Positions 11,984 through 36,332 of a DNA stretch of 64,000 bases are shown here, piece after piece. The notes below the pieces were generated by a model. It ran no database searches, was not told the origin of the DNA, and was given only the letters and a program-made list of their open reading frames with translations. The stretch is from an uncultured Candidatus Saccharibacteria bacterium (GTDB lineage Bacteria; Patescibacteriota; Doudnabacteria; UBA920). The translations under genes were made by a program, and so were the position numbers. The stretch covers positions 393-64,392 of the forward strand of contig CAYZEI010000001.1 of assembly GCA_964477745.1 (NCBI GenBank). The letters run 5' to 3'. The first letter of the stretch is position 1. Every line of letters starts with the position of its first letter.

Positions 11984-11991
11984 GGGCAGAT

Positions 11992-18140: not shown

Positions 18141-18175
18141 ACAAAAACCCCCGGGGGCACAGCCGGGGGTTTGAA
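18141..18175. terminator. GC-rich hairpin terminator (AAACCCCCGG-loop-CCGGGGGTTT) flanked by A- and T-runs
   Basis: Seen directly. Likely terminates the 18435..18869 transcript on the minus strand. Confidence 0.6.
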
Positions 18176-18434
18176 ATTATATATTTTTGCCTTTCCTGTT
18201 TTCCTTTATTGGGTCTGTTGCCAAATGTCATTTTTGCCCAAAACGAGCTTGCTTGGTAAAATTTCCAAAAAAATTTATCCGCTTACCTTTCAGGTAAACA
18301 TCAAAATTTGTTTTGCAAATTTTCCACAAGCTATCTCATTTTGTATCAAAAAGCCCATTCGTCAATAGACCCCTCCTACAAATTTCTGCCGTCTGGTTAA
18401 TGAACCGAGGGTAAAAGTATGAGGAGCTTAGAGC

Positions 18435-18869
18435 CTACCTATAAAAGATGCTAAACACTCCGTCTGCGGACGGATAGTATTTACTATAAGCGACTGAGTC
18501 GGAGGCACCGGCCACTTGGCCTTGCTCGGCTAGAGCCACTTGAGTGTTAGCTAGTCCCTGCAGGCCTGCAATTTTTAAGAGGGACGGGCCAGCCTCTTGT
18601 CCAATATACGATGCAGTGTCTGCATAGTATGCGTAGTCTTGTTGAGCCGGAGTGATTAAGTTTGTATATACAAACTCAGAATACACACTGGCCGTGGTGT
18701 CTAACACAGCGACTACGTTTGTCGGGGCAAAGACATCCGGAAACGGGTTTTCTATTCTTTCAAAGCTGGCGTTACTAACAGTAACGGCGAAAAGAAAGAA
18801 CATGGAAGTAAACGCTACTCCCAAAAGCCCTAATATTTTTTCCGGGGTTTCTTCGGTAATGATTTTCAT
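18435..18869 (-). CDS. Hypothetical membrane-anchored/secreted protein (144 aa)
   Basis: N-terminal hydrophobic helix, then an Ala/Tyr-rich domain. No family recognised. Confidence 0.45.
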   Translation of the reverse strand: MKIITEETPEKILGLLGVAFTSMFFLFAVTVSNASFERIENPFPDVFAPTNVVAVLDTTASVYSEFVYTNLITPAQQDYAYYADTASYIGQEAGPSLLKIAGLQGLANTQVALAEQGQVAGASDSVAYSKYYPSADGVFSIFYR

Positions 18870-19244
18870 AAATTTTTAAAGTTCAAAAGCTTAAAGTAGA
18901 AACTTACTTGGCTGTTTTACCCTCTCTGCGCCCAGCTATACACGGGACGAGAAGTGATTGCGCACACACTCCTTAACTAAAACAATCAAAGCAATTTAAG
19001 CTTTTCTATATTAATATTATTTAATTGTATTTTTGTTTTGTCCCGATGTCCATTCACAAATTTTGTGGGAATGGCTACCGGAACAGTTTTTGTTTCAATG
19101 AATCCATCCAAATATTATCGGGATGTATTCAATTATGTTTGATTTCTTTTGCTCCACCACCGGCGAAACAAAATCGACCTTAAGAAATCTTTAACTTATA
19201 TATTATAGCACAGCTACAGAAAAAAAGCAAGTCTTAATTTTCGA

Positions 19245-19279
19245 TTTTACGAAGTACGAAGCCATACGAACTTACGAAT
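19245..19279. repeat. Left half (outer + inner arm) of a family-1 hairpin element
   Basis: TTTTACGAAGTACGAAGCCATACGAACTTACGAAT directly abuts the stop codon of the GxxExxY gene. Confidence 0.75.
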
Positions 19280-19681
19280 CTAAGCGCTTACATTTACTAT
19301 GCGCTTATAATGTAATCCGCTTGGACCAAAATACGCCAATATCCCTAACTGCAATTTTTTTGCCACTAAATAATTATAGACCTGATCAATATGAGCTTTG
19401 GAAAATTTATCCCCTCTTTTCAACTCAACTACAACAATATTTTCAACTAAAAAATCAAAATAATTTTTTCCCACAATCTTACCTTCAAACAATATCGGGG
19501 CATACAACTGTTCTGTGTATTTTAAACCCGCCTTAGTCAACCCTACGGCAACAGCTTTTTGGTAAGTCTTTTCATATAATCCATAACCCAAACTTCCGTA
19601 CACATTTAAAAGGACACCAACGATTCTAAAGCATAGTTCGGGATAAATTAAATCCTGTCGCTTTAAAACATTTGGTGTCAT
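19280..19681 (-). CDS. GxxExxY-family protein (PD-(D/E)xK nuclease superfamily), embedded in a family-1 hairpin element
   Basis: LGYGLYEKTYQKA...GL....Q...P...G......D.LVENIVVVELK......H.DQVYNYL....LQLGILAYFG....KRIV matches the GxxExxY consensus I remember. Start and stop codons abut the two halves of the element. Confidence 0.7.
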   Translation of the reverse strand: MTPNVLKRQDLIYPELCFRIVGVLLNVYGSLGYGLYEKTYQKAVAVGLTKAGLKYTEQLYAPILFEGKIVGKNYFDFLVENIVVVELKRGDKFSKAHIDQVYNYLVAKKLQLGILAYFGPSGLHYKRIVNVSA

Positions 19682-19721
19682 TTTCGTAAGTTCGTACTTT
19701 TTTCGTACTTCGTAAAAACGA
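19682..19721. repeat. Right half (inner + outer arm) of the same family-1 element
   Basis: TTTCGTAAGTTCGTACTTTTTTCGTACTTCGTAAAAAC lies between the GxxExxY start codon and the ftsZ stop codon. Confidence 0.75.
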
Positions 19722-20909
19722 TTATTTCATTTTCTTCCGAATGAACGCCGGGATATCCAGTTCGTCTTCCGGAGTTTCATCCACACTTGGCGTTTCAATT
19801 CTGTCTATCGGTGGAGCTGGTTTTGGATTGAACATTGGCTTGCGAACTTCGGCTACCGGAATCGGATTGTTAAAAATTCTCGGCTCCGGCATTTTAACTT
19901 TCTTTGGTTCGTCATTCATTATTATAGAAGCCGGGGTCGGACGCTTACTGGATTCATCAAAGCCCGTGGCAATTACGGTAATGCGAATTTCATCGCCCAT
20001 GGTGTCGTCTATGACCGCGCCGAATTTCACTTTGGCATCAGGGTCAATGCTTCGGGTAATAACTTTGGCCGCTTCGTCTATTTCAAACATACCCAAAGAG
20101 CTACCACCGGTAATGTTAAACAGCACGCCCTTGGCGCCGTCTATGGTCATCTCTAAAAGAGGAGAATTAATAGCTGCCTTAGCGGCTTCCTGCGCGCGGT
20201 TTTCACCACTCGCTCTGCCAATACCCATAAGTGCGGTACCGGCGTCTTGCATTATGGATTTAATGTCCGCGAAGTCCGCGTTCACAATTCCGTGCGTGGT
20301 AATTAAATCTGAAATTCCGGCAATCCCCTGGCGTAAGACTTCGTCAACGGTTTTGAAAGCGTCTACCAGGGAAGTTTTTTTGTCGATGATTTGTAAAATG
20401 CGATCGTTGTGAATGGAAATAATCGCGTCGACTTTATCTTTTAAATTATCATAAGCGGTTTCGGCAACTTCTTTTCTTTTGCTACCTTCAAAAGTAAAAG
20501 GCTTGGTCACAACACCAACTGTGAGAATACCTTTGTTCTTGGCCAGCTCGGCTACAATCGGCGCTGCTCCACTACCGGTACCACCACCAAGACCGCAGGT
20601 TATAAAAACCATGTCGCCGTTTTCAATAACTTCTTCCAATTCTTCCACACTTTCTTCCGCTGCTTGCCTGCCCAATTCCGGATTCATTCCGCTTCCTAAT
20701 CCTTTAGTGGCACTTTTGCCGATATGAACTTTGCGATCGGCTTGGTTATTATGAAGAGCCTGCGCGTCGGTATTAATAGACACGAATTCCACACCCTTAA
20801 TCCCCAACTGGGTCATTCTGTTGACCGCGTTGGTTCCGGACCCGCCAATGCCAAGAACCTTAATTCTGGCAAAGGTTTCAATTTTTGGTTTGACTTCCAT
20901 TTTTTTCAT
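19722..20909 (-). CDS. ftsZ: Cell division protein FtsZ
   Basis: GGGTGSG tubulin signature, NTDAQAL, and the C-terminal peptide DIPAFIRKK (FtsA-binding tail). Confidence 0.95.
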   Translation of the reverse strand: MKKMEVKPKIETFARIKVLGIGGSGTNAVNRMTQLGIKGVEFVSINTDAQALHNNQADRKVHIGKSATKGLGSGMNPELGRQAAEESVEELEEVIENGDMVFITCGLGGGTGSGAAPIVAELAKNKGILTVGVVTKPFTFEGSKRKEVAETAYDNLKDKVDAIISIHNDRILQIIDKKTSLVDAFKTVDEVLRQGIAGISDLITTHGIVNADFADIKSIMQDAGTALMGIGRASGENRAQEAAKAAINSPLLEMTIDGAKGVLFNITGGSSLGMFEIDEAAKVITRSIDPDAKVKFGAVIDDTMGDEIRITVIATGFDESSKRPTPASIIMNDEPKKVKMPEPRIFNNPIPVAEVRKPMFNPKPAPPIDRIETPSVDETPEDELDIPAFIRKKMK

Positions 20910-21069
20910 GATTGATTACATTTAAACAATAATAGATATAAAAAATAAAATCAAGCGCTGAACAATTTTTAGACTGTTTTTCGCGTTTGATTTTTGTTTT
21001 GGGATATTTAACCGCTATTTTGGCAGTTACTTTTTGCTGTTAAAATTATAGCACACCCGTGGGTTTATG

Positions 21070-21108
21070 CAAAAATTCACCCGCTCTTTAGAATAAAGAG
21101 CGGGGTGA
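21070..21108 (-). terminator. Rho-independent terminator after the giant gene, before ftsZ
   Basis: CACCCGCTCTTTA-GAA-TAAAGAGCGGGGTG hairpin followed on the minus strand by a T-run. Confidence 0.6.
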
Positions 21109-21122
21109 ATAAGGTTTTGCAC

Positions 21123-24100
21123 CTATTTGACAGGTTTAGCGGGTTTTTTAGGATTTCCACCGCCTGCTTCTCTTTCGGCCCTGCGTTCCAACATTCTCTT
21201 ATGGGAGTCTTCCAATGCTTTTTTAATATCTTCAACTTGAGCGTCCGGAGGAATGCGTAAGAAATTTTTTGCCCCAAAGGCGGGCTTAGTCGCGCCGGCC
21301 TCAAAAGATAACAGGACTCCTTTACTTAAATCAGTATCCCGATGTGATGGATTTGTCTTATTCAGCAAACCATCTCTAATATTTTTCGGAAGTTGGTCTA
21401 ATGCAGAGTCAAATGCTTTCAATACTTTAAGCTTGTCACTGTCAGGCATTAATTTCCCGTCCATTATATAGTGCACCCGTTTTCCAGTCTTCTCCAATAG
21501 TTCCTTGCTCGCTGTGCCAAATTCAGTACCACCGGTTTCATTTGTCGATTTGGCGGTTTCTGATTTCGTCTCGACAAGCTTTTCGGATCCGGGTTTAGCA
21601 GTGGTTTCCGAAGCCCCTGGTTTCGGAGGCGCTTCAGAGCCTGGCTTAGGAGCAGCCGCTTTAGCTGCCGCTTCAATTTTTGCTTCCTCTTCCACTACAT
21701 CACCATAAAACTCCTCAACCTGATTTTGCTTTATTATATTCCCGGCAATTAAAGCTTGCTCCATTTGCCAAACAGCTTCTGCCCTCTCGGCTTTAGTAGC
21801 TTTATCCGGCTTTAAAATTTTTCCTTTATGAGCATCTCCCTCAACCACAAACCGAATAGCCTTTTTATCTATTTTTTTCAGGCCGGTATTTTGTCCGTAT
21901 AACTCAAGTAAGGCCGCGGCATATTGTGGGTTTAGGTAGCGCTTTAGAACATCACCTTTAAACTCAGGGGCTTTAGCTTCTGTGGTCTCACCGGCTGCTT
22001 TTTTGGTACCATCTTCTTGGCTTCCTCCTCCCCCACCACCAGACTCATTTCCGCCACTGCTACCTTTATCACCTGCTTTTTGGTCACCAGCTTTCTTTTT
22101 TGCTTCCTTTTCTTCTTGCTCTTTGTCTTTCTTTTCTTTATCCGCTTTTTGCTTGGCTTCTTTTTCTGCTTTTTTCTTTTGCTTCTTTTCTTCTTTTTCA
22201 TTTTCCCCGGGGCGATAGAAAACTTTTCTTTGTGGGGGAACAGTCGGCAAAGCTTGGTCATATTCAACCGGGCCTTTAACAGGCATAAAATCCTGGACGA
22301 CATCCTTTTTCCCAAAATCTATGCCCTGTCCGTTATTTTTTTCACTATTTATCCAAATATAATTTTTACTGCCATCACTTCTAGCCCCAGTTGCTTCCGC
22401 CAAGCCAAAGAACCCGGTGCCCTTTGGCCGTCCTGTGGCCGGGTCAAACAATTTGGCAATATTACTGTCTTTTGGAATTATTACTTCGTGGGTTTTGGAA
22501 TCCACATCTAAAACTATTGCGTCATGGGCATTTTTTCCGTCCGGCACAAATATCATTTTTATTTTTCCGTCCGCAAAAGCCTTTTCTAAATCCGGTTCCT
22601 GAACTTCCTGATTATGTATCATCCACGAACCGTCCTTCTCTACCGGAACTTTAAAATGAAAATTCCCACTACTATCTTTATTTATATAAAACTTCAATTC
22701 ATTGCCATTATGAGTATGTGGGGTTTCCCCAGTCGGGTTGTCGTACCAATTTTGCGTATGAATTTTTTCAATATTTCCTCCCGCAATATGGCCTTTTAAG
22801 CCTTTCATCCATTCCATTGAGGTCTGGTCACGGCTTCCGGTCACCACATGTTCCACCGCTGTTGCCCCGGCCATTACCGGATGCCCATCAAAATTACTTT
22901 GGTAGAACTTTGTACCTTTTACGCCATCTACAATCTTATCAAAAGAAGTATGGTGATTTTTAAAATAACTCCCACCCCATAACTTTTCAACCTGCTCACC
23001 ACCCAAATGTATAGCTTCCTGCGCTAAAATCCCACCGGCAAAACCCATAACCGCACCCTTTAATCCCGACACTAGCATTTCTTTTCGTTTAAAATCACCC
23101 TGTTTTTCGTTGACTTGTTTTATAACATCCAAAATGGCATTTTTTTCTTCATTGGCCATTATTTGCAAATCTTGCTCTTTAATTCCTAATTCTTTTAAGG
23201 CAATCTTTAAGTCGACTTTTGCCGAAACATTAGAACCATAACGTTTACCTTGGTCTTCATCCATACTAAACAAATCTACTTTGGTAAGCTTTTTACTTTG
23301 GTCTGCAATGGCATCTCTCTCTAATTGTAACCGCGCATAAATTTTTGCTAATTGCTGTTTCTCAGCTTCGGTGAAAGTTGTTTTGTCTTTCATAGATGCA
23401 ACTACTGCCATAGCATCTTTGAATGACATAACTACAGCATCATAACTGCGCTCACCTTTTTCACCCAAAACATCACTCCCTTTTCCGCCCAAAGTTTTTT
23501 GGCGCAATTCCTGAGCAGTATCATATTCCGTATCTTTACCGCGTTTAATCGCGCGATATACTCCCCCAACAGCTGCGCCAACTCCCAAAGGAACCCAAAA
23601 CCCGCCACCCGTTGCTACAGTGGCGCCACCAACCGCTGCCCATTTAATTGCACGCTGAACTCCTTGAGTGGCCACTGTTGTGGCGACACCCATAACAAAT
23701 GGGTTTAGTAGTATTTTGCCTAAAACCTTATTATTTTCACCCCAATTAACTGCTCTCTCAGATAAATTTAAAATGCCTTTCGGACGATTATTTACAATAT
23801 CCCTATCCTTAAAGCCCAATTGCAAATTCAAACCCCGGACACCTTCTACCTGCTTGCTTATAGCATCACGGATTGTTTCAATATTAGCTTCAGGATTCTT
23901 ATCCATAACTTCTTTAACCACCGCATCAATCTCTGATTTGTTTTCCTTATCTATAGATTCTAAAATTTCATAAAAATTGCTCGCATACAAAAGACCCTTG
24001 GTTTCATTTGTCCTGTCATTATTTGTGGTCCATTTCCCAGCCGATCTCCTGTTAATATAACCCGCAATGTTTTCTTTTACAAACAATTCTACAGCCGCAC

Positions 24101-26015
24101 GCTTATCTAATCCCTTATAGGCATCGCCGTCCCATTTATTGGTTCTATACCTATGCAACAGTTCTGAAAATCTGTCTTGAACTTCGGGATCATTATTCAT
24201 ACTGTCTCCAACCTCCCGCTGAGTGTCTACTAACTCTTTTTTATATTCCAAAACAACCTTATCCAACATTTCCAAGTATTCGCTGGATACAAGAGCTCCT
24301 GCTCCCGGCACTTCTACGCCAGATACCCGCTCAGAAATTGCCTTCATCAAATTATTATCTTTTTTAATTTCTTCTCTGGCCTCGGTAATAAGATTACGGC
24401 GGGTGGCAGCCTCTGTCATTCCCTTCCAAGCATTTTTTATAACCTTGCCAAAAAACCCGCCCTTGTGGTCAAAATGTTTTCTTAATTTTTCTTCAGCCTT
24501 TGTTTCCGCCATACGCTCAGCAATTGCGGAAATATCTATTAAGAAAAGCTTTTTGTCAGTTTTTTCTGGAGCAGGTACTTCTTTTACTGGAATTACGTCA
24601 AGTTTATTTTCCCAATCATAAGGCTTTTCATCATTTTCCAATTTATGTTTTGCTGGAGTTGGAGTTGGCTTTAAAGTAACAACAGGAGACTCTTCAGGAA
24701 TAATCTTTGTTGTAGATTCTGTGGTAGTAATAGGCGTTAGTTCTGGAGTTTTTTTAATAACCGGAGTGGATACAACTTCCGATTCCAATTCCTCTTTTGG
24801 CACCTGCTGTTCTTGTGGCAATACCAAAACCCGCCTGCTTTCCAACGCAAGCATGGCTAATTCATAATTCTGTCGCAACTCGTCCATTTTATCAAAATCT
24901 TGAGGCAACTTATTTTCTCCAACAAATCTTTCCAAAAGCATAGCCTTGTACTCTTCGTCTTTTGCAATAAGGTTGGCCTCGCGTTCGGTATAAAGATGTT
25001 GCTCCCTCTTTTGGCCTTCACCTAAGGGACTAACCGCCTCGCCGTCCTTTTTATAATTTTTTGGGTAATGAAAAGCAAAATACGGCAAGGAACTTTCTGA
25101 AAGCACCTTAACCAAATTATGATATTTGCCTAACGTTTTAGTACGGACATCCAGTTGTTCTTTTAGTTTTTTGTCGTCAATTTTTAAATATTTTTCCACC
25201 CGCTGGCGTAAAGCTTCGCCCAATTGCTGTTTTTTAAACTCTTCGTCATAACCGCCAAATACTTTCCCTTCCGCTTCGGCCTTTTTCCTGTCCGCTTCTT
25301 CCCAAGCTTCCACTTCTTTATACGCTTCTTCTTTAAGTTTATCTTTAACCGGCAACTTGTTTAACACTTCAAACCAAGCCATTTTCTTTTTGGCCTCTTC
25401 CCCACTAATATTTGCTCTAACGGATGCTAACTCATATTTTTCTTTAACTTTCCTGCTACCTTCTATACCCGCTTCTGTTCGGTGGGCTTGTCTGACCTGT
25501 TTTTCTGTTAATGCTCTTAACCTTTGGACTACTGTAATAAGCTCATCTACCGGTAAACCCTCCAACCGATGCGCATTAACTTTACCATTATTGTCCAGCA
25601 CTTCCACGGAATAGTTTTCTCCGTCTACAATTTTACTTTTCGCACCCTCCACGCTTTTTTGGATCCACTGTAGACGCGCTCTATCTTTAGCGGAAAGACT
25701 TGGTTCTGACAAAGCATTGGAAATTAAACGCAAAGAACCGTCTACGGACTCTTTAATTTCCGCTCGTTCCCGCGAAACTCTTTCGTTCTGTTCTTTAACT
25801 CTGTCAATTTCTGCCTGATTTTTTACCTTTTTTGTTTCCGGATTATCTTTTTTTACTGGCTGTTCTTTTTTTGCACCACTGTCAACAACGGGTTTACCAT
25901 TTTCCGGTTTATGTCCGCCATTGCCGTTATGCTCGGAGATTTGCTGTTCCCAGGTTTTACCGGCAAGTCTCTCGCTTGCTAATCTGACAGTGTCAAAACC
26001 ATTTTTTTTCGCCAT
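21123..26015 (-). CDS. Giant (1630 aa) K/E-rich coiled-coil protein with central glycine-zipper hydrophobic hairpin(s) and a C-terminal presumably extracytoplasmic domain; function unknown
   Basis: No signal peptide. About 790 N-terminal residues are charged and helical. Hydrophobic Gly-rich segments: ILLNPFVMGVATTVATQGV...AAVGGATVATGGGFWVPLGVGAAVGGVY and LKGAVMGFAGGILAQEAIHLGG. A KE-rich low-complexity block (EKEEKKQKKKAEKEAKQK...GGGGGGS). Pro-rich KPGSE repeats near the C-terminus. Confidence 0.7.
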   Translation of the reverse strand: MAKKNGFDTVRLASERLAGKTWEQQISEHNGNGGHKPENGKPVVDSGAKKEQPVKKDNPETKKVKNQAEIDRVKEQNERVSRERAEIKESVDGSLRLISNALSEPSLSAKDRARLQWIQKSVEGAKSKIVDGENYSVEVLDNNGKVNAHRLEGLPVDELITVVQRLRALTEKQVRQAHRTEAGIEGSRKVKEKYELASVRANISGEEAKKKMAWFEVLNKLPVKDKLKEEAYKEVEAWEEADRKKAEAEGKVFGGYDEEFKKQQLGEALRQRVEKYLKIDDKKLKEQLDVRTKTLGKYHNLVKVLSESSLPYFAFHYPKNYKKDGEAVSPLGEGQKREQHLYTEREANLIAKDEEYKAMLLERFVGENKLPQDFDKMDELRQNYELAMLALESRRVLVLPQEQQVPKEELESEVVSTPVIKKTPELTPITTTESTTKIIPEESPVVTLKPTPTPAKHKLENDEKPYDWENKLDVIPVKEVPAPEKTDKKLFLIDISAIAERMAETKAEEKLRKHFDHKGGFFGKVIKNAWKGMTEAATRRNLITEAREEIKKDNNLMKAISERVSGVEVPGAGALVSSEYLEMLDKVVLEYKKELVDTQREVGDSMNNDPEVQDRFSELLHRYRTNKWDGDAYKGLDKRAAVELFVKENIAGYINRRSAGKWTTNNDRTNETKGLLYASNFYEILESIDKENKSEIDAVVKEVMDKNPEANIETIRDAISKQVEGVRGLNLQLGFKDRDIVNNRPKGILNLSERAVNWGENNKVLGKILLNPFVMGVATTVATQGVQRAIKWAAVGGATVATGGGFWVPLGVGAAVGGVYRAIKRGKDTEYDTAQELRQKTLGGKGSDVLGEKGERSYDAVVMSFKDAMAVVASMKDKTTFTEAEKQQLAKIYARLQLERDAIADQSKKLTKVDLFSMDEDQGKRYGSNVSAKVDLKIALKELGIKEQDLQIMANEEKNAILDVIKQVNEKQGDFKRKEMLVSGLKGAVMGFAGGILAQEAIHLGGEQVEKLWGGSYFKNHHTSFDKIVDGVKGTKFYQSNFDGHPVMAGATAVEHVVTGSRDQTSMEWMKGLKGHIAGGNIEKIHTQNWYDNPTGETPHTHNGNELKFYINKDSSGNFHFKVPVEKDGSWMIHNQEVQEPDLEKAFADGKIKMIFVPDGKNAHDAIVLDVDSKTHEVIIPKDSNIAKLFDPATGRPKGTGFFGLAEATGARSDGSKNYIWINSEKNNGQGIDFGKKDVVQDFMPVKGPVEYDQALPTVPPQRKVFYRPGENEKEEKKQKKKAEKEAKQKADKEKKDKEQEEKEAKKKAGDQKAGDKGSSGGNESGGGGGGSQEDGTKKAAGETTEAKAPEFKGDVLKRYLNPQYAAALLELYGQNTGLKKIDKKAIRFVVEGDAHKGKILKPDKATKAERAEAVWQMEQALIAGNIIKQNQVEEFYGDVVEEEAKIEAAAKAAAPKPGSEAPPKPGASETTAKPGSEKLVETKSETAKSTNETGGTEFGTASKELLEKTGKRVHYIMDGKLMPDSDKLKVLKAFDSALDQLPKNIRDGLLNKTNPSHRDTDLSKGVLLSFEAGATKPAFGAKNFLRIPPDAQVEDIKKALEDSHKRMLERRAEREAGGGNPKKPAKPVK

Positions 26016-26019
26016 AGAA

Positions 26020-26349
26020 TTATTGTCCTAAATAAGCTTGTTTAAATTTCACCATCTCATCTTTAAAAATTTCGCTGATGTTTGGAATTTGCGTTCCAAC
26101 AAAAGCCATAATTTCTTCCTGGCTTGGACTGGTTGCCAGTAATTTTTCCATTTCCGGCGCAGCGGATTCCGGCAAGTGCTGAAAAATAGATTGCATTAAC
26201 CACTGTTGCAAACGGTCCGCTAGATCTTTTATCATTTGCTCTTTTAAACTTTCCGGAATGTCTTTAATTCCTTTGTCATAAAGACAAGAATCTAAAAAAG
26301 CGTACAAAGGAGGAGTTATTAAATTGTCTTGGGTATTTTGTGTGTCCAT
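26020..26349 (-). CDS. Small acidic protein (109 aa), co-operonic with the giant protein
   Basis: 4-bp gap to the giant ORF. Acidic and helical. No family recognised. Confidence 0.5.
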   Translation of the reverse strand: MDTQNTQDNLITPPLYAFLDSCLYDKGIKDIPESLKEQMIKDLADRLQQWLMQSIFQHLPESAAPEMEKLLATSPSQEEIMAFVGTQIPNISEIFKDEMVKFKQAYLGQ

Positions 26350-26370
26350 AAAAAAATTTAAATTTTGAGT

Positions 26371-28089
26371 TTAGGACAAGGCCTTAGAAATTCTGTCCAA
26401 AGCTTCGTCACTTAATGAGCCAAAAAGACCATCTTCATCACTGCCAATTTCTTCAGTTCCGAATATTTCTGCCACATATTTTAATTCTTTTTTTGCAGGC
26501 TTAACTACAACCGGCTCCGCTTCCCGAATTGGTTCTTCAGTTACAGGATCAAGTACTACTTTTGTAACTTCCGGAGCATCAACTATTTCAGGCTTTGTTT
26601 CTACAACTTTTTTAACGTGCCATAAGTCTGTTGGTAGAGGTTTGGCTCGCACATAACCTAATAGCGAATATTTTAAAACTTTCGCTTTGGTCATAGTTTC
26701 GTTTTCCGGCGCTTCCGCAAGAGGGTGGTCTTTTAAATACTCTTTTAACCCATCCATAGAAAGATTGTACAACTTCTGAAACTCCTTTAAAAATTCTTGT
26801 CTTGCGCCGACAAGAGTTTCTTTTCCCAATAAATAAAGCGCTTCAGTGCCTTTAAGCCCGGCATTTTGGGACAATTCAGATAAAATACTTTTGTATCCCA
26901 ACGCCTTTTCCAAAGATTCAAAGCGTGTCTTTAATAACTCCATAAAAGCTTTGGCCTTGGCTTGAAACTCTGGACTATTAAAATGCTCCTCGTCGGTACT
27001 CCAACGATTAATATTTCTTTCCGGCTGTGCGGGTAAAGGCGTTTGTACTAATTTTTCAAATCTTTTCTCACCAATAGCTTCAATCCATGTGTCCAAAACT
27101 GCCTTACTTTGGATTGATTCCTTAAAAGATGTTGTCTTAGTAAAATCTGGGAATTGAATTTGGGATCTATTTAAAACATCTTCAAAATCACCGCGCTCCT
27201 TTTTTTCGGAATCGGTTAAACTAATAAATTTTTTTCTTCGTAAAGCCAAATATTTTTCCACTTCAGGTTTTGACTTTTTGGTAATATTAACCAATTCTTC
27301 CACAGAAAAAGCATCTATTTCCTGCCAGTTATCAATTCTCCCATTCGGTCCCACGCCCACAACCAGATCACCTTTTTCTACGGCAAATCTAGGGTAAAAT
27401 TTTCCATTTGTCTCTACTAAAACTTGTCTGCAGGCTTCCACATATTTTTTTAACTCTTCCGGGCTTGCCACTTGTGCTACCGGAGACAAATAAATATAAT
27501 ATGGGGTCTTTTCTTTCCCCGCAATAACCGCCTTTAATTTATAAGGCAATCTGCTTTCGTCTATGGTTATTGATTCGGCCTTAAGTTCAGTTTCAGGATT
27601 TTCTGCCACTGCTGGAGCAACTACTTCCTGAACTTCAGCGCTGTCCTCGGGGATTACCGGCTCTACTTCAGGCTCGAGCATATAACCCAAGTATTCATCA
27701 CATTGGCGCTGATATTCTTCGTTATCAACTTGATGCGTTTTCCATCCTTTAACCACAGTCTTTATTTCATCATCAGACATTTCTTCCAAATAATTCTGCG
27801 GGGTAAGGGCAATGCTTTGTAAAAAATCCAACATCTCCGGTTGAGATTCTTCTATGCTAGTCGCAATGGATTTTAAATAACTGTTCAAATCAACCACACC
27901 CAGGCTTTCATCGTTGACTTCTTCAGGATGCTGACGATAATTAAATCCTACGGCAAAAGCCAAACGCGATTTTTTGGAAATACTTTTAGGCAAATCTTTA
28001 ATTTCTGAAATTTCAGGAACATCTGGAACATTAGGGGCACCTTCTAGCCCCTTTAAGTCTGATAATTTAGTATATTTAGATTCGTCCAT
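26371..28089 (-). CDS. Acidic soluble protein (572 aa), first gene of the giant-protein operon
   Basis: 21-bp gap to the next gene. No TM. E/D-rich. No family recognised. Confidence 0.6.
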   Translation of the reverse strand: MDESKYTKLSDLKGLEGAPNVPDVPEISEIKDLPKSISKKSRLAFAVGFNYRQHPEEVNDESLGVVDLNSYLKSIATSIEESQPEMLDFLQSIALTPQNYLEEMSDDEIKTVVKGWKTHQVDNEEYQRQCDEYLGYMLEPEVEPVIPEDSAEVQEVVAPAVAENPETELKAESITIDESRLPYKLKAVIAGKEKTPYYIYLSPVAQVASPEELKKYVEACRQVLVETNGKFYPRFAVEKGDLVVGVGPNGRIDNWQEIDAFSVEELVNITKKSKPEVEKYLALRRKKFISLTDSEKKERGDFEDVLNRSQIQFPDFTKTTSFKESIQSKAVLDTWIEAIGEKRFEKLVQTPLPAQPERNINRWSTDEEHFNSPEFQAKAKAFMELLKTRFESLEKALGYKSILSELSQNAGLKGTEALYLLGKETLVGARQEFLKEFQKLYNLSMDGLKEYLKDHPLAEAPENETMTKAKVLKYSLLGYVRAKPLPTDLWHVKKVVETKPEIVDAPEVTKVVLDPVTEEPIREAEPVVVKPAKKELKYVAEIFGTEEIGSDEDGLFGSLSDEALDRISKALS

Positions 28090-28154: not shown

Positions 28155-28198
28155 AAAAATGATAAAAAGAAAAGCGCCAGAATCATGAGATTCTGGCG
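28155..28198 (-). terminator. Rho-independent terminator (CGCCAGAATC-ATGA-GATTCTGGCG + T-run on minus strand)
   Basis: Perfect 10-bp stem. Separates the Pro-rich gene trio from the giant-protein operon. Confidence 0.65.
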
Positions 28199-28248: not shown

Positions 28249-28980
28249 TTACGGGGTAATAACCCCGAGTACAGGCACAATCTTGTGCCCAACAGTAGCT
28301 GCCGGTCCGGAGACCGGCCACAGCCACCATGCCAAGAATGCTTCAGCGGGGCAAAAGCCGATTTTCTCGGCAGTTCCCCACTTGGACCAATCGCGGATAC
28401 CAACGGTGTACGCATACACGCAGTGGATAACCGGTAACTTGGTCCACAAAGGCCGACCCTTCTTGTCCCAAGTCAAGGTGACCTGGTACTGTCCGGTTTC
28501 CGGCCAATCGGGCGGGGGCGGAAGCTCGTTGAGCTCCACCGGCGGTTCGGCCGGTGGTAAAGTTACTTCCGGTTCCGCAGGTGGCGGAGGTGGTGGTGGC
28601 TCGGGAGCCGGTGGCGGAGGTGGTGGTGGAACAGGAACGTACTCAAGAGAATACACCTTATTCCCGCAATCATACCGCACCATTACTGAACTTCCGGAGA
28701 AGATGAACTTCTCGCCGGCTGCTTGGGGAACAAACCCCTTGCCACCAACGATATCCATCTCTACGCACGCACGCTCCTCAAGAGCGCGAATTTCTTCACC
28801 AACCGCCGGTTCGCGGTGACGGTTAAGGAAAGACGGGGTGTAATTTGAAAACTCCCCACTCTCCACCGCCGAGACGCACGCGGCCATTGTTGCAAAACGC
28901 GTTTTGCCGGTTTCCGCTCCGAAGAGCATCATCCCGGCGAAGATTGAAAGACACAAGAGTTTCAACATAGCCACCAACAA
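28249..28980 (-). CDS. Secreted poly-proline protein (243 aa) with Trp-rich C-terminal domain
   Basis: Signal peptide MLVAMLKLLCLSIFAGMMLFGA. PVPPPPPPPAPEPPPPPPPAEPE tract. Local GC well above the window average. Confidence 0.55.
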   Translation of the reverse strand: MLVAMLKLLCLSIFAGMMLFGAETGKTRFATMAACVSAVESGEFSNYTPSFLNRHREPAVGEEIRALEERACVEMDIVGGKGFVPQAAGEKFIFSGSSVMVRYDCGNKVYSLEYVPVPPPPPPPAPEPPPPPPPAEPEVTLPPAEPPVELNELPPPPDWPETGQYQVTLTWDKKGRPLWTKLPVIHCVYAYTVGIRDWSKWGTAEKIGFCPAEAFLAWWLWPVSGPAATVGHKIVPVLGVITP

Positions 28981-29195
28981 ACTTTTGGTTCACCTAATAG
29001 CTATAAGCTAAAACCAAAAAGCTAACTGGTCGCTATGTTGAAATCTACAATTTCCTCCTTATATTATTTTAGACAAATTTTGCCTAATGTTTTTTACCAA
29101 AATATTTTTAGTATAAAACATCAAACAAAATTTTTAAAAGTGGTGGTAGAAGTGCGGGCCGATTGGGTCCGCACTTCTACCTTGCTTATAAAGCG

Positions 29196-30443
29196 TTACT
29201 GGGCTTTGCAGCCCTTGGGGGGCCGTGCCCCCTCATTCAGCATTCCGAGCGACATGAGTCGCTTGAATGCTGAACACTTGTTGCTCTTGCTGTCGGTGAT
29301 GGCGGCTGCGCCAACCACCGCCAGCGTCTCGTGATCCGAGTTCTGGTTATCCCGAAGGGTAACCATCCGCTCCTCCGCGGTTGTAAGACGACTGCCCAAC
29401 TCTACCTGTCGGCTCGCCAACAAATTCTGGCGACCTTCAACCGCAACGAGCCGGTCGACGACCTGCTGGCCGAGGCCAGAAGGAGCAGGAGCCGAGTTGT
29501 TGGGTGTTGCCGACATCATTGTCGGCGGATTGATGACCGGAGCCGGTGGGGCCGGAGGAGTGCTGGGCATTGCTGCCTTCACACCCTCCATCACCGCACG
29601 CTTGATATCATCCGCCGTGAGTTGCGAAACCACAGGCCGAGGGGCCGGTGGGGCAACGTGGCGACGAACAGGAGAAGGCGCGGGTGCAGAAACGGCCGGC
29701 TTGGGAGCCGGAGTAACTGCCGGAGCAGGCGTCGGATTGACGATCTGACTCAACCAGCCCTGGATACCGTTCACCTTTCCCCAAACCCAAACCTCGTTAG
29801 CGGTCTGTGCGGTTGCCGTCTGACCCAATGCTCCGAAGAGCAAGAGGGCAAACAGTATCATGGGCAGAACGTTTCCACAATTCGCGCAAAACCGATCGAA
29901 TTGAGTCGGCTTCGGCACATTGCAATTGGGACACGGTGTCCCAGCAGGCGCAAGATGCGCCGGCGTTGGATTCCTCAAACTCGCTGCCAGATCAATGTTG
30001 ATTGGAGGTGGCGGATTGAGTTGAACCGTAACCGGAACAGTCATCTGATTTCCCGTTGCCGGATGATGACCGTTGGTACGGTTCCTTCGAACCAGCGCCA
30101 AAATCACACCGCCGACAATGAGCAAGGCCAAGAGAGCCAAGAACCACTGGCCGTATCCCCAATCCGTTGAGGGAATGGGGCTGACAGTGGCGTCCTTGTG
30201 GCTGTACTTGTTCATGACCGCCACAACCTTTTCGCCCTTTGCCATGGCCTGTTGGATCTCCTGATCCAGAGGTGTGGCAGGAGCAGTTGGGGTCGTGGTC
30301 GGAGCAAGCCCTTCAGGCTTCGGGCAGAACGTCTGCCCGCCTTCGATTTTGAAACATCCAGCGGGAACGGTCTGGGCGTTGACAGTGGTCACCAGCGCGC
30401 AGCTGGCGACGAGAACGGTGAGAGCGAACAATGTGTTACGCAT
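29196..30443 (-). CDS. Pro-rich membrane protein with cytoplasmic Cys4 zinc ribbon (416 aa from ATG 30443; the track ORF extends to 30569)
   Basis: The ATG at 30443 has AAGGAG 10 nt upstream and starts a signal peptide MRNTLFALTVLVASCALVTTVNA. TM WFLALLALLIVGGVILALV. Zinc ribbon CPNC...CANC. Second hydrophobic segment, then Pro/Ala-rich ectodomain. Confidence 0.55.
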   Translation of the reverse strand: MRNTLFALTVLVASCALVTTVNAQTVPAGCFKIEGGQTFCPKPEGLAPTTTPTAPATPLDQEIQQAMAKGEKVVAVMNKYSHKDATVSPIPSTDWGYGQWFLALLALLIVGGVILALVRRNRTNGHHPATGNQMTVPVTVQLNPPPPINIDLAASLRNPTPAHLAPAGTPCPNCNVPKPTQFDRFCANCGNVLPMILFALLLFGALGQTATAQTANEVWVWGKVNGIQGWLSQIVNPTPAPAVTPAPKPAVSAPAPSPVRRHVAPPAPRPVVSQLTADDIKRAVMEGVKAAMPSTPPAPPAPVINPPTMMSATPNNSAPAPSGLGQQVVDRLVAVEGRQNLLASRQVELGSRLTTAEERMVTLRDNQNSDHETLAVVGAAAITDSKSNKCSAFKRLMSLGMLNEGARPPKGCKAQ

Positions 30444-30974
30444 GGAAATGGACTCCTTAGATTTCCGGCGCTCGCCGGTTTTTTTGCAAGAATAGCGAGC
30501 GCCTCTTGCAGACAGTAGAGAATTAACTTCCCTATTCTCCGCAAAAGGCGTAACCATTCCTTGCAACAATCCAATTTCTCCATTCTATTCCCTATTCGCT
30601 AATCGCTATTTACTAAACTAAAAGTAACGCTTTATAACTTAAACCTCCGTTTAAGTTTTTATTAAAGAACTTGCCTATTTAATGTAGAGACAATCTCCCA
30701 TTAAGTAGACCTTATATTATACTCTTTTTTCAGTATTTTGTCAAGTCCTAATCTAAATACTAATTAACTAATAAAATGCCTTATTTAAGCCAAAAAAATC
30801 AAAAAGAGGTATCGGCGAGCAAATATGCTCAAGCGCGACACCTCTGACGAATAAATCTTGCGTTTTGTTGGGTTCGCTACCCAAGCGTAATCAGTCAATT
30901 TGGACACAACTGACTACTACTTCCTCCTACTAAATTCTTTCTTCAAAAATGCTGAATCTGGATCGTCCAAAATT

Positions 30975-32024
30975 CTACATCCCCGAAGATTCCCTCCGCT
31001 CGGCCCTTTCGGCAATCTGCTTGATATCCTCCGAAAGAGGACGAGGAACTATCGACAGCTTTCGAGGAGACTGAACCGGCCCAATTGGTTCATGAGCCTC
31101 TGGAACCGCTTTCACGATCTGCGGAGGCTTTTCCGTACTGATGCGACGCCGGCGAATCGTCTTCCGTAGGCTTTTCATTTGCCTATCGACCCATACGGGA
31201 TTAGACTGAAGGGCCAAATAGGTTAACAAAAATACCGCCAGAAATACCATAAGGGTAATAAAGCGGAGGAAGTAAGGCTTCGTCTCCGCGCGCCTTTGGG
31301 ATTCCTGCTTCGCTGGTTCTTCTTCGGTTGTCTGAGAGGGCGCCGGAGCAGGAGCAGAAGCCACCTGAGGGGCCTCGTCAACCACTTTCCCAACTAGCAT
31401 TGTTATGCCACTGGGGTCTTGATTGACTTGATCCTTTGTAGCAACCGCCAACTTCTTTTCAGTTGCCGGCGGAATTTCCAGTGGCGCTTGCTTGGCAACA
31501 ACTTTCGCTGGTACCGGAACTGTCGGAATCACCTTCACAGGCGTTGGCGCCGTAGTGGCAACCTTGGCCACTACGGGTGTTGGGGTTGCTTTTGGCGCCG
31601 GTGTTGGAGTCGTTTTTGCAACGACCTTAGCCGGAGAAGTCTTCGGCGTTGGCGCCGGAGCGACGACGACTGCCACCACTTTTTTCGTGGTTGCTGTCGA
31701 GCTCAATATTTCAACCTCACCGAACTTTGCGTTTTCAGCCGCCAAGTATTCTGCCAGGCTAACCTGGTTAATCTTGGTGCCCTTGATCAACCAAAGCTGG
31801 TCGCCCGGGTGGAAGGAGCGAACTTCGTCCTTCCCGACCTTCTCGCCAGTTGCGGTGCCTTTGCGCAACTCAGTGTAGAGTCGCGCATTGTAGCCGACCG
31901 ATTCAACTGCTTCCATTAGTCCCTGGCCAGGAGCCAGGGTAATTTGTACGTCACGGTCTGGAATGGCCTGCGCCATTGCCATAACCGTGAAAAGCAGAGC
32001 TAAAACAAACCTTGTGGGGTTCAT
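30975..32024 (-). CDS. Bitopic envelope protein: signal peptide, LysM-like N-domain (tentative), Pro/Thr/Ala/Val-rich linker, TM helix, basic cytoplasmic tail
   Basis: MNPTRFVLALLFTVMAMAQA signal. TPTPAPKATPTPVVAKVATTAPTPVKVIPTVPVPAKV linker. TM YFLRFITLMVFLAVFLLTYLAL. The LysM call is a weak pattern match only. Confidence 0.6.
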   Translation of the reverse strand: MNPTRFVLALLFTVMAMAQAIPDRDVQITLAPGQGLMEAVESVGYNARLYTELRKGTATGEKVGKDEVRSFHPGDQLWLIKGTKINQVSLAEYLAAENAKFGEVEILSSTATTKKVVAVVVAPAPTPKTSPAKVVAKTTPTPAPKATPTPVVAKVATTAPTPVKVIPTVPVPAKVVAKQAPLEIPPATEKKLAVATKDQVNQDPSGITMLVGKVVDEAPQVASAPAPAPSQTTEEEPAKQESQRRAETKPYFLRFITLMVFLAVFLLTYLALQSNPVWVDRQMKSLRKTIRRRRISTEKPPQIVKAVPEAHEPIGPVQSPRKLSIVPRPLSEDIKQIAERAERRESSGM

Positions 32025-32178
32025 ATTGCCCTCCCTTTCTCTTTTTTAACTTCAAACTTCCAAGACCCTGTGGTCTTGTATTTATTTACGTCCAACTGAC
32101 GCGAATAAATACAAGACCGCTATGAGTTTAAGAATCATTATACTAAAAAAACACCTGTTAGTCAATGCTAAATAGGCA

Positions 32179-32230: not shown

Positions 32231-33481
32231 CTACGGCAAAAAGGATTTAAACCATTTTCTTAATTTGGCCACGCCTTCGTTACTCATAATATTTTTTACC
32301 ATTCCGCCCAGTTCAGCCGCGGAATTTTTGGCGGAAAATTTCCCGCCCCACAAAACCAAACCAACCGCTGTGGCAAATGAGGGATCATCTACCCGGTCTA
32401 TAACTGTACTGACGTTTTGCGGTTTGCCTAAAACAGTAGGCAGGCGCAAATTCTTTTTGGCAAATTCCACCATTCCGGGCATTTTACTACCTCCACCGGT
32501 TAAGACTATTCCGGCCGGCAATTTACCGTCGCGCTGGATTTTTTTTAGCTCCGAAACCACCATTCGGAAAATTTCTTCCAAACGGGCTTCAATAATTTCT
32601 ACTACATACTGTCTGGATGTGGCCTGGTCTTCGCTTTTATCTAACTTGGATAAATCTATTTCTTCTTCTTTGGAAATTTCTCCCGGGTTACAATGCCCGT
32701 AAAGTACTTTTACTTTCTCCGCGGTTTCAATTCCACAACGCAAACCAATCGCTACGTCATTGGTAATATGCATACTACCCAAAGGTAAAACCGAAGTGTG
32801 GAGTAGATCCCCTTCTTCATAAACGGCAATGCTAGTGGTGCCGGCGCCTAAGTCTACCAAACACACGCCCAAATCTTTCTGGCGTTTGCTTAACACACTT
32901 TCGGCCGCTGCACATGGAGCCAAAACCAAATCTTCTATTTCCAAACCCGCCTGCATAACCGCACGGGTTAAATTTTTAATAAACGGCAAGCCCGCTTGGA
33001 CAATAATTGTATCTACCTCTAAACGAATCCCGCTCATACCGGCCGGATCCTTAATTCCGGTCTGTCCGTCCAACGTAAAAGTTTTGGGGAAAACATGCAA
33101 GACTTCTTTATTTTGCGGAATGGAAATGGCTTGACTGGCATCTATGCAACGGATAATATCATTTTCCGTAATTTCGCCGTCTGCTCGGGAAACGGCAATA
33201 ACGCCATGGGAAGAAACCGAGGAAATATGATTTCCACCCACCGAAACATTAGCCGCCGAGACCGGCACGCCGGTCATGCGTTCAACTTTTTCCAAAGCGG
33301 AAGAAATGGAAGAAACTGCTTCTTCAATATCTACAATAACCCCACGTCGAAGACCCGTAGAAGGCACTTCGCTGGCGCCAATAATATTAAAAGACCCGGT
33401 TTGCGAGTCCAACTTTGCCTGCACCGCGCGAACATTGGCTGTTCCAACATCTACGCCAACAATGTATTGTTCTTTAGCCAT
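32231..33481 (-). CDS. ftsA: Cell division protein FtsA
   Basis: Actin-fold ATPase motifs (VGVDVGT..., DLGAGTTSIAV, GGGS). Length and pattern match FtsA. Confidence 0.9.
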   Translation of the reverse strand: MAKEQYIVGVDVGTANVRAVQAKLDSQTGSFNIIGASEVPSTGLRRGVIVDIEEAVSSISSALEKVERMTGVPVSAANVSVGGNHISSVSSHGVIAVSRADGEITENDIIRCIDASQAISIPQNKEVLHVFPKTFTLDGQTGIKDPAGMSGIRLEVDTIIVQAGLPFIKNLTRAVMQAGLEIEDLVLAPCAAAESVLSKRQKDLGVCLVDLGAGTTSIAVYEEGDLLHTSVLPLGSMHITNDVAIGLRCGIETAEKVKVLYGHCNPGEISKEEEIDLSKLDKSEDQATSRQYVVEIIEARLEEIFRMVVSELKKIQRDGKLPAGIVLTGGGSKMPGMVEFAKKNLRLPTVLGKPQNVSTVIDRVDDPSFATAVGLVLWGGKFSAKNSAAELGGMVKNIMSNEGVAKLRKWFKSFLP

Positions 33482-34007: not shown

Positions 34008-34097
34008 AGTTTGTCAGGTTATAAAGTTTGTAAAGCTCATCAAGCAATTTTACTTTTTACACTTGATGAACTTGATAACATTATAAATTTTAGCTTC
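34008..34097. repeat. Family-2 intergenic inverted-repeat element (TTATAAAGTT ... CTTGATGAACTTGATAAC)
   Basis: Fills the stop-to-start gap exactly. Copies at 34832..34929 and 36235..36332 share GTTATCAAGTTATAAAGTT / AACTTGATAAC arms. Confidence 0.75.
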
Positions 34098-34831: not shown

Positions 34832-34929
34832 GGGAATAAGTTATAAGGTTTATAAAGTCTATCAAGTTATAAAGTTATTGCCTCCACTTGATGGACTTGA
34901 TAACTTTATAAACTTTTTACTTGCTTGGA
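34832..34929. repeat. Family-2 intergenic inverted-repeat element
   Basis: AAGTTATAAGGTTTATAAAGTCTATCAAGTTATAAAGTT ... CACTTGATGGACTTGATAACTTTATAAAC. Confidence 0.75.
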
Positions 34930-36234: not shown

Positions 36235-36332
36235 AATATAAATAAGTTATCAAGTTATAAAGTTTTGCAAGTTATAAAGTTTCCGGTTCAACTTGATGAA
36301 CTTGATAACTTTAAAAACTTTCTACTTTTGTA
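36235..36332. repeat. Family-2 intergenic inverted-repeat element
   Basis: AAGTTATCAAGTTATAAAGTTTTGCAAGTTATAAAGTT ... TTCAACTTGATGAACTTGATAACTTTAAAAACTTT. Confidence 0.75.

Follow-up and report, generated by a model that had tools for sequence, protein, structure and literature searches.

The window analysed here, 64,000 nucleotides (nt) of contig CAYZEI010000001.1, carries an ftsA gene 95% identical to that of a Ca. Doudnabacteria metagenome-assembled genome, which identifies the organism as a member of Ca. Doudnabacteria, within the candidate phyla radiation (CPR). Next to ftsA lie three minus-strand genes, here called g3, g2, and g1 in their order from ftsA, which encode proteins of 349, 415, and 239 residues and are rich in guanine and cytosine (GC). 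A sequence-only reading of this stretch had described them as a distinctive envelope-protein module adjoining ftsA and had raised horizontal transfer from a high-GC donor as a possibility to be tested. The module stands as described; the transfer is not supported. Very probably, these are native envelope-protein genes restricted to one clade, with a GC-rich state maintained over the long term and with conserved structured leaders, including a g2 leader that would form a duplex with the stop codon of its own transcript.

Three genes inserted between ftsA and ftsZ

The trio forms the first part of an insert bounded by ftsA and ftsZ. The remainder is AT-rich and consists of p572, a DUF5663 gene, and a giant gene (Table 1). 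For comparison, 63 related ftsA loci were recovered (handles beginning with L). In relatives with an ftsA identity of at most 67%, ftsZ begins ~20–250 nt from ftsA. In the clade of the window the two genes are mostly split by an insert, which measures 2.6–11 kb where the locus holds both boundaries; one clade member, L017, retains the adjacency. The complete order ftsA, g3-position gene, g2, g1, p572-like gene, DUF5663, giant gene, ftsZ is found in L002, a strain-level relative of the window, and in L075, a separate species. Part of this order is seen in L003, L012, L071, L072, L073, and L199, and trio-type genes also occupy the conserved position in L197–L199. Orthologues of g1 always lie just upstream of the (p572)–DUF5663–giant–ftsZ block. 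The arrangement recurs in >20 independent assemblies, and an assembly chimera was rejected on this ground.

The bins of 500 nt downstream of ftsA peak at 0.50–0.66 GC in nearly every clade member, against backgrounds of 0.38–0.51. The clade open reading frames (ORFs) in these bins encode signal peptides of the AxA↓Q type and have a GC content of 0.52–0.63, rising to 0.54–0.69 at third codon positions (GC3). Further GC-rich genes occur in L003 beyond the giant gene (10287-12560, minus-strand ORFs of 613 and 406 residues) and in L014 several kb downstream of ftsA, past unrelated genes (16855-19998). From these two cases, the GC-rich gene class may extend beyond the slot adjoining ftsA.

Signal-like N-terminal segments are present in all three proteins, as the sequence-only reading had held, and the sites VNA↓Q and AQA↓I fit the −3/−1 rule by eye. 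The poly-proline tracts, the PT/PA-rich linker, and the Cys4 motif between transmembrane (TM) segments that it had picked out are likewise found in the translations. The g3 product is laid out as a type-I membrane protein, with a signal peptide, an N-terminal ectodomain of ~100 residues, a PT/PA-rich stalk, a TM helix, and a basic cytoplasmic tail. In g2, a signal peptide leads into a first ectodomain, which bears a CxxxxGGxxFC motif. TM1 and TM2 follow, with a basic loop on the cytoplasmic side between them that carries the Cys4 motif; beyond TM2, a stalk rich in Pro and Ala leads to a long helix and then to a Cx21C loop, with PPKGCKAQ at its end. The product of g1 starts with a hydrophobic segment that is either a signal or an anchor. 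A domain containing Cys comes next, then a polyproline stalk, and the C-terminal domain is hydrophobic and rich in Trp; the tract PVPPPPPPPAPEPPPPPPPAEPE is part of this product.

The g2 architecture is kept in the family members P0016–P0018. Its CxxC-x11-CxxC motif is kept in P0002, P0016, P0017, and P0018 and is absent from P0003, P0014, and P0015; the Pfam model Zn_ribbon_3 scores the g2 protein at 18.0 bits, under its cut-off of 27, with the two CxxC knuckles present. Another member, P0014 (L199 270-1292), has collagen-like GPxGPx repeats in its ectodomain. Among g1 relatives, P0008 shares an identical C-terminal half, but the N-terminal domain joined to it is another one entirely, which indicates domain swapping.

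No match above threshold was obtained for g1, g2, or g3 in Pfam, PHROGs, or a PDB sequence search. In the AlphaFold2 model of g2, only TM1 and the C-terminal helices are confident (predicted local distance difference test, pLDDT, of 85–94 over residues ~330–410; helices 323–383 and 386–398) and the remainder is poor; a Foldseek search with this model returned nothing above threshold. The g1 model, built from 7 sequences, has a mean pLDDT of 41 and is unusable. Since a signal for export, a stalk rich in Pro, Ala, and Thr, and an anchor of membrane or hydrophobic type are present in each protein, all three are predicted to be surface-exposed and to project from the cell.

Table 1. Positions of the genes and signals discussed in the text, in window coordinates.
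Feature	Position	Strand	Basis or remark
ftsA, upstream insert boundary	32231..33481	-	Pfam FtsA and SHS2_FTSA
g3 promoter-like site TTGACT-17-TATAAT	32137..32165	-	11/12 consensus match
g3 leader hairpin, 21-nt arms, 5-nt loop	32072..32118	-	inverted repeat I2, 90% complementary
g3	30975..32024	-	ORF and translation; weak homologues at equivalent position in L010, L015
g3 terminator hairpin and T-run	30792..30845	-	read from sequence
g2 promoter-like site TTGACA-17-TATAAT	30716..30744	-	12/12 consensus match; conserved 5′ of leader in other species
g2 structured 5′ leader, ~270 nt	30444..30711	-	folding vs shuffles; conserved blocks
hairpin presenting SD-like GGAGG (STAB-SD-like)	30637..30656	-	~200 nt upstream of g2 start codon
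5′ arm of putative long-range duplex (TTATAAAGCGTTACT)	30623..30637	-	perfect 15-nt complement of 29186-29200
leader stem P3 (CGCCTTTTGCGGAG...CTGCAAGAGGCG)	30500..30550	-	18 bp
g2	29196..30443	-	translation; family of ~12 credible cluster representatives
Cys4 zinc-ribbon motif CPNC-x11-CANC	29874..29933	-	residues 171-174 and 186-189, between two hydrophobic segments
3′ arm of putative long-range duplex (AGTAACGCTTTATAA), contains stop codon TAA	29186..29200	-	duplex energy and covariation
g2 intrinsic terminator, 16-bp stem and T-run	29127..29181	-	inverted repeat I5
g1 leader: SD-like GGAGGAAA 29051-29060, then 84-nt hairpin 28960-29043	28960..29060	-	inverted repeat I1
g1	28249..28968	-	ORF and translation; orthologue position
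g1 terminator	28155..28198	-	follows the gene
p572, AT-rich	26371-28089	-	part of insert; GC3 0.32/0.35 for p572/giant pair
DUF5663	26020-26349	-	part of insert
giant 1630-residue protein, central hydrophobic segments	21123-26015	-	AT-rich part of insert
ftsZ, far insert boundary	19722-20909	-	insert remainder and boundary span 19722..28089

Composition, codon usage, and age of the trio

The GC-rich character of the stretch, noticed in the earlier reading, coincides with the genes. By 1-kb window, GC across 28–32 kb is 0.51, 0.55, 0.46, and 0.54, compared with ~0.36–0.46 elsewhere and a single window of 0.49. A 200-nt profile resolves three blocks of 0.52–0.65, which are the three ORFs, separated by troughs of 0.26–0.38. 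Gene by gene, GC is 0.57 in g1, 0.58 in g2, and 0.54 in g3. The trio coding sequence lies at 54–59%, and the corresponding values are 42% in the remaining coding sequence and 34% in spacers; runs such as GGTGGCGGAGGTGGTGGTGG occur at 28577-28636. The four trio spacers, at 0.33–0.37, match the window intergenic mean of 0.34, in line with the description of AT-rich spacers with terminators, and GC falls to the intergenic level within ~100 nt of every trio start and stop codon.

At third positions, GC3 reaches 0.59 in g1, 0.62–0.63 in g2, and 0.55 in g3, and all other window ORFs of at least 120 residues lie at 0.26–0.48. When the amino-acid sequence is held fixed and codons are drawn from the usage of the other 44 window genes, the expected GC3 of the three genes is 0.42–0.45 versus 0.55–0.63 observed (z = 4.9, 7.7, and 5.0); the largest positive excess among non-trio genes is +0.10. 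Amino-acid composition accounts for 58–62% of the trio GC excess, which upholds the earlier suggestion that the skew is partly driven by amino acids: Pro amounts to 12.2% versus 4.0% and Ala to 11.7% versus 7.7%, and Lys, Ile, Asn, Phe, and Tyr are depleted. The remaining excess over expectation is +0.049 to +0.072, with a background standard deviation of 0.021 and a background maximum of 0.039.

This remaining ~40% comes from systematic avoidance of A/U-rich codons, among them AAA, TTT, ATT, TTA, and AGA. Compared with the rest of the window, the trio raises AAG (75% vs 25%), TTC (63% vs 16%), ATC (47% vs 10%), CAG (72% vs 34%), TAC (71% vs 33%), and CTC (23% vs 3%) and lowers TTA (5% vs 38%) and AGA (0% vs 21%). 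The codons for Pro, Ala, Thr, Ser, and Val have a GC3 at the host level, and the shift lies in the A/U-rich, two-fold codon families.

Two long antisense ORFs within the trio had both been described as Arg-rich. This holds for 29331-30170, and 28283-28819 is instead Gly/Ser-rich. The former is codon-aligned with the sense frame, where only TTA, CTA, and TCA yield antisense stops. Since these sense codons are avoided, the antisense ORFs are by-products of the codon bias, and were set aside as genes in their own right.

As grounds for giving up an unusual composition, the sequence-only reading had named vertical conservation in relatives together with a GC3 indistinguishable from the genome once amino acids are accounted for. 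The genes are vertically conserved, and their GC3 remains distinguishable. Because they stay GC3 outliers after the amino-acid control, the composition is real, gene-specific, and long-lived, and needs explaining.

Its age can be gauged from the orthologues. Those of g1, at 29–70% amino-acid identity, differ by 1.6 to >3 synonymous substitutions per site (dS), so that synonymous sites are saturated, and GC3 at conserved residues is 0.55–0.66 in both partners in all lineages; ftsZ and DUF5663 of the same genomes lie at 0.13–0.45. The per-gene GC3 contrast between trio and flanks is repeated in L071–L073, L003, and L075, and trio-class genes keep ~0.52–0.63 GC in genomes that span 38% to 55%.

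Searches for a donor led back to the same phylum. Homology searches found three relatives of g2, one of g3, and seven of g1. An exhaustive HMMER pass of the g2 C-terminal domain against 1.84 billion representatives gave 14 matches, ~12 of them credible; two were taken as spurious, being low-complexity repeat proteins. No credible homologue outside the Doudnabacteria family was found among 1.84e9 representatives and 5.8e9 clusters, and none in a plausible donor lineage. Every family member with a readable locus adjoins a Doudnabacteria ftsA or sits in a DUF5663–giant block. No integrase or recombinase was found among the window proteins scanned, which do not cover every ORF, no direct repeats flank the trio, and no tRNA adjoins it, the only window tRNAs being at 37201 and 57431. 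Of the usual marks of a genomic island, the trio has atypical base composition and codon usage. It does not have absence or patchiness in close relatives (the same order recurs in many clade loci), a still-decaying composition with unsaturated silent sites, or, among the scanned window proteins, mobility genes, a tRNA target, or flanking direct repeats. Because dS is saturated with GC3 kept, outside homologues are missing from the searches, and mobility features were not seen, the composition represents a long-lived, gene-specific state. Judged by these comparisons, the GC-richness of the trio is an old, stable feature of the lineage, with no trace of recent import.

Between close strains, the locus is variable. 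An alignment of the window with L002 over 28862-30442 is a mosaic of 100%-identical and 60–90%-identical blocks. For g2, dS is 0.52, and up to 1.23 in the part encoding the TM and zinc loop, with a ratio of nonsynonymous to synonymous rates (dN/dS) of 0.24; g1 is nearly identical, with a dS of 0 and one nonsynonymous difference, and the flanks have a dS of 0–0.15 (0.03 in ftsA and hisS). This pattern is taken as a sign that recombination has replaced alleles at g2, and not as one of positive selection. The AT-rich p572 and giant genes are mosaic to a comparable degree, and their GC3 values (0.32 and 0.35) are among the lowest in the window. The contigs of the close relatives L001, L007, and L008 end inside or beside the insert, as expected at a strain-variable locus.

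The g2 leader and its predicted pairing with the stop codon

The three genes are monocistronic, each being separately promoted and terminated, and the promoter-like sites of g2 and g3 lie close to consensus. Downstream of its promoter-like site, g2 has a long leader that folds with a minimum free energy of −96.7 kcal/mol, compared with −61.7 ± 4.3 for shuffled sequences (z = −8.2). The leader blocks GTTCTTTAA, AGGAGG, AAA(G)CGTTACT, and GYCCTTTGCGR are conserved in 15+ species, and no Rfam family reaches threshold for it. The g2 leader is a previously undescribed structured RNA. Within it, stem P3 is paired in 91.7% of cells, against 43–49% when the partner is slid, and 12 of its 18 pairs change on both sides among 12 species. 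A metagenome scan with a loose leader pattern gave 120 chance matches, none of which passed a stricter filter.

A re-check of the start of the listed ORF 29196..30569 had been advised. The ATG at 30443, with AAGGAG, is the correct start of g2, and the extension 30444-30569 is leader RNA; its nucleotide sequence is conserved, including where the part coding for the N-terminus differs. The translational Shine–Dalgarno (SD) sequence of g2 is this AAGGAG, within 30441-30458, and is distinct from the distal GGAGG presented by the leader hairpin. The leader thereby contains an SD-like sequence within the 5′ untranslated region (UTR) remote from the start, one of the marks of stabilising SD (STAB-SD) elements.

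Next to this GGAGG lies one arm of a long-range complementarity, whose other arm contains the g2 stop codon. The arms are ~1.4 kb apart in the window and 0.9–2.4 kb apart across loci, and would form a duplex of 15 bp in the window and 9–17 bp in 15 other species, with energies of −19.8 kcal/mol in the window (−6.0 ± 2.0 in shuffles) and −14.6 to −24.4 kcal/mol across species (−4 to −12 in shuffles). The core CGUUAC:GUAACG recurs around the positionally equivalent gene of other species, even where the encoded C-termini are unrelated. The helix was defined on 13 species; L197–L199, fetched afterwards, all obey it. Over the resulting 16 species, the share of paired cells is 88.5% and drops to 36–47% if the partner is slid. 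Changes on both sides are seen at 8 of the 13 pairs, values like those observed were reached in none of 500 shuffles, and every one of the 128 cells at the 8 central pairs is paired. Complementarity of at least ~10 bp between leader and 3′ end and compensatory change are among the marks of interactions of the hbs and icaR type (see below), and both are found here. No comparable 5′/3′ complementarity is present in g1, g3, ftsA, or p572.

Several features suggest that this putative pairing occurs in RNA. Both arms lie within one transcription unit, between promoter and terminator, and the non-Watson–Crick cells of the 13 species comprise 11 sense-strand G·U and 2 of the A·C type (p = 0.011). In L020, pairing is kept only via three U·G wobbles. 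As to its position, the GGAGG lies 2–15 nt 5′ of the arm in 13 of 14 arm-bearing loci (it is further upstream in L075, and L021 has GGGGG), and also stands beside the arm in L027, L058, L197, and L198. Transposon terminal repeats were considered for the two arms and rejected: the arms co-vary, target-site duplications are missing, and the promoter lies outside the repeat. Just 3′ of the arm GUUACU, an AGUAA(G) often follows (30600-30625 in the window; also L026 and L058), with which the arm could pair locally; local pairing and pairing with the stop codon may thus compete for the leader arm.

The other two transcripts carry hairpins of their own. That of g3 lies between its promoter and a GGGAGGG SD at 32022-32035. 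In g1, the start codon at 28968 is buried in the 84-nt hairpin, whose 5′ arm co-varies with codons 1–4 in L073, L075, and L020, and the only strong SD-like sequence, GGAGGAAA, lies upstream of the hairpin. Directly 3′ of the g2 terminator, TTTAAAAATTTTGTTTRATGYTTTAWACT (29100-29140) is conserved across species (L003, L075, and L199) and is probably the g1 promoter region.

Elsewhere in the window, an intergenic repeat that measures ~87 nt and contains a hairpin (AAGTTATCAAGT...ACTTGATAACTT) is present in at least three copies 3′ of housekeeping genes (36241-36327, 34835-34922, and 34011-34091). Other products are an ankyrin-repeat protein (58484-58978), a 23S-rRNA-IVP/bAvd-like protein (61027-61392), a type IV pilin (56743-57243), ComEC (9893-11353), and DprA (41339-42436), a set typical of CPR gene content.

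Competing explanations and known counterparts

Taken as a whole, the locus is on balance best explained as encoding envelope proteins that are specific to the lineage and probably abundant, with strong selection acting on their mRNAs at the RNA level. In this account, the insert has split an ancestral ftsA–ftsZ pair, and the trio are lineage-restricted envelope genes of one Doudnabacteria clade, in which codon bias and RNA structures may be two sides of the same selection on the mRNA. Its purpose could be resistance to 5′ exonuclease and AU-directed endonucleases or, alternatively, a coupling of mRNA fate to translation. Either would allow surface components that are abundant, and possibly S-layer-like, to be made in large or closely controlled amounts. 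The narrower proposal, which derives the codon bias as well as the RNA structures from selection on the stability of the mRNA or on its coupling to translation, is tentative.

Several points weigh against this account. Presumably highly expressed genes of the window lack the codon shift (GC3 of 0.32 for GroES and 0.36 for S21); translational selection for high expression is thus an unlikely cause of the bias, and any selection must be specific to the trio mRNAs. That the proteins are abundant or S-layer-like is something we infer from the genes, and an S-layer or cell-wall-binding domain was not found in the trio by Pfam, PHROG, PDB, or Foldseek searches. The detectable relatives of g3 are few. 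The duplex could act either to stabilise or to destabilise the mRNA, and the presence of RNase J, RNase Y, or RNase III in this organism is an assumption. Finally, the heavy recombination at g2 leaves room for recombination-linked explanations of the composition.

Two such explanations are live alternatives: the exchange of alleles inside the phylum, and gene conversion that is biased. The first supposes that the genes were acquired long ago, at the clade's base, and that Doudnabacteria, including lineages of 50–55% GC, have gone on exchanging alleles, so that the composition is that of a shared pool. Deeper Doudnabacteria do lack the insert, homologues in clade members of 50–55% GC are no outliers (L020), g2 alleles have been replaced between strains far beyond the divergence of the flanks, P0008 has a swapped N-terminal domain, and the divergence of g1 does not follow that of ftsZ. 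Between species, however, divergence is in every case greater for the island genes than for housekeeping genes, with no recent inter-species transfer seen; a GC content of ~0.52–0.63 in genomes of 0.38–0.55 would demand very frequent exchange or selection; and p572 and the giant gene next to the trio, though mosaic to a similar extent, are AT-rich. We regard this history as a minority possibility.

In the second, the locus would be a recombination hot spot in which repair bias lifts silent-site GC. The mosaic identity, the locally very high dS, and the breaking of close relatives' contigs inside the island suit such a hot spot, but the GC content drops sharply at the ends of each coding sequence, p572 and the giant gene lie near the bottom of the GC3 range although their divergence is comparably mosaic, g1 hardly differs between L002 and the window in spite of being GC-rich, and the shift is concentrated in A/U-rich codon families instead of being even over silent sites. 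GC-biased gene conversion is accordingly improbable as the source of the composition.

For the duplex, the rival is that the inverted repeat around g2 acts as DNA, either as a site-specific inversion switch for phase variation or as a cassette boundary. Inversion of g2 would create the junction GGAGGTTTAAGTTATAAAGCGTTACT then GGGCTTTGCAGCCC, that is, ...TAAAGCGTTACT joined to GGGCTTTGCAGCCC. As in known invertons, inverted repeats flank a hypervariable surface-protein gene, and the core CGTTAC/GTAACG is highly conserved; moreover, a title cited in PMC3666127 refers to the switching of L. acidophilus S-layer genes by inversion of a chromosomal segment. Yet the gene stands in the promoter-sense orientation in 16 of 16 assembled loci, the repeats do not mark the end of the block in which the window and L002 diverge, and the arms of L020 and L026 differ by T:G mismatches inside the core that still pair as RNA. 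None of the opposite-strand GC-rich genes in other loci, considered as inverted g2 cassettes, has the flanking repeat. An RNA duplex is favoured over a DNA recombination site because of the 11:2 bias to sense-strand G·U, the uniform orientation in 16 assemblies, and the lack of a recombinase among the scanned window genes (not every ORF was scanned); the location of both arms in a single transcription unit also speaks against a DNA role, to which we give a low probability.

Recent horizontal transfer, in which the island was newly acquired from a high-GC donor such as an actinobacterial host and has yet to drift to the host composition, would account for the atypical GC and codon usage and for the location in a variable region. 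It is very improbable, since the same genes are GC-rich, in the same order, in many clade species, and in every genome examined; synonymous sites are saturated among orthologues with GC3 unchanged; the spacers are host-like in composition and hold leader motifs conserved clade-wide; and the searches turned up neither a homologue outside Doudnabacteria nor an integrase, tRNA, or flanking direct repeats. Least tenable is a GC excess arising purely from Pro/Ala/Gly/Thr-rich protein sequences, which the Pro/Ala enrichment and the majority amino-acid share favour but which the residual GC, the GC3 z-scores, and the synonymous shifts (AAG, TTC, ATC, TTA, and AGA) refute as a complete explanation.

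Returning to selection on the trio mRNAs, a more specific form is conceivable though rather unlikely. The mRNA of the g2 slot could form a closed loop, with its stop codon paired to the leader beside a non-initiating GGAGG, and each terminating ribosome would melt the duplex. This could tie survival of the mRNA, or the hand-back of 30S subunits, to completed translation, and the same selection would hold the surface genes at ~57% GC while the genome drifts between 38% and 55%. If true, the closed loop would be a bacterial counterpart of mRNA circularisation.

The findings matter in three respects. Atypical composition is routinely read as horizontal gene transfer; here it is a conserved native property, and composition-based calls of such transfer in CPR bacteria can therefore err. 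The trio provides concrete candidates for surface components of a CPR lineage, located in a hot spot that splits ftsA from ftsZ. The leader, with its kilobase-range duplex including the stop codon, is a new and comparatively well-supported RNA element.

To our knowledge, interactions between the 5′ and 3′ ends of bacterial mRNAs are known from very few cases, and we know of none that involves the stop codon. In the hbs mRNA of B. subtilis, a 14-bp interaction of the 5′ with the 3′ UTR modulates cleavage by RNase Y (Braun, Durand and Condon 2017, PMC5737220). The putative g2 duplex resembles it in joining a structured leader to the 3′ end of its own mRNA over ~14 bp, in a Gram-positive-type organism and on a transcript that is short and monocistronic and has a terminator as well as a strong SD. 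Unlike the hbs arm, which lies within the 3′ UTR, the 3′ arm of g2 holds the stop codon itself; the g2 arms are 0.9–2.4 kb apart, and g2 encodes a membrane or surface protein, whereas hbs encodes a nucleoid protein. In S. aureus icaR, pairing of a motif from the 3′ UTR with the functional SD prevents initiation (PMC3868564). Here too, both ends of one mRNA would pair, which in icaR serves post-transcriptional control, but the 5′ arm of g2 lies ~190 nt upstream of the real SD, beside a second, non-initiating GGAGG.

A far-upstream SD-like element of this kind is described for cry3A of B. thuringiensis, where it stabilises the mRNA against RNase J1 (Agaisse and Lereclus 1996, as reviewed in PMC4113751). 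The g2 leader shares with such STAB-SD elements a non-initiating GGAGG in the 5′ UTR, >100 nt from the start, in a gene expected to be strongly expressed. It differs in that the GGAGG is in or beside a hairpin, immediately 5′ of the long-range arm.

Like horizontally acquired genomic islands, the trio stands out by its composition and occupies a variable region flanked by conserved genes. It is set apart from them by its conserved position and order, by a composition that is stable at saturated dS, and by the fact that no mobility genes were found in the scanned window and no donor is known.

A further parallel is with S-layer genes. The trio has no detectable domain of the S-layer or S-layer homology (SLH) type, and consists of three small proteins with stalk-like low-complexity regions instead of one large lattice protein. 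Titles cited in PMC3666127 indicate that slpA-type S-layer genes of Lactobacillus acidophilus have long structured leaders and stable mRNA, and a host-attached groundwater CPR cell imaged by cryo-transmission electron microscopy has an S-layer and no outer membrane (10.1101/2020.05.14.094862). The trio shares with S-layer genes a consensus promoter, a long structured leader, a monocistronic unit with a strong terminator, a secreted surface protein as predicted product, and variability between strains.

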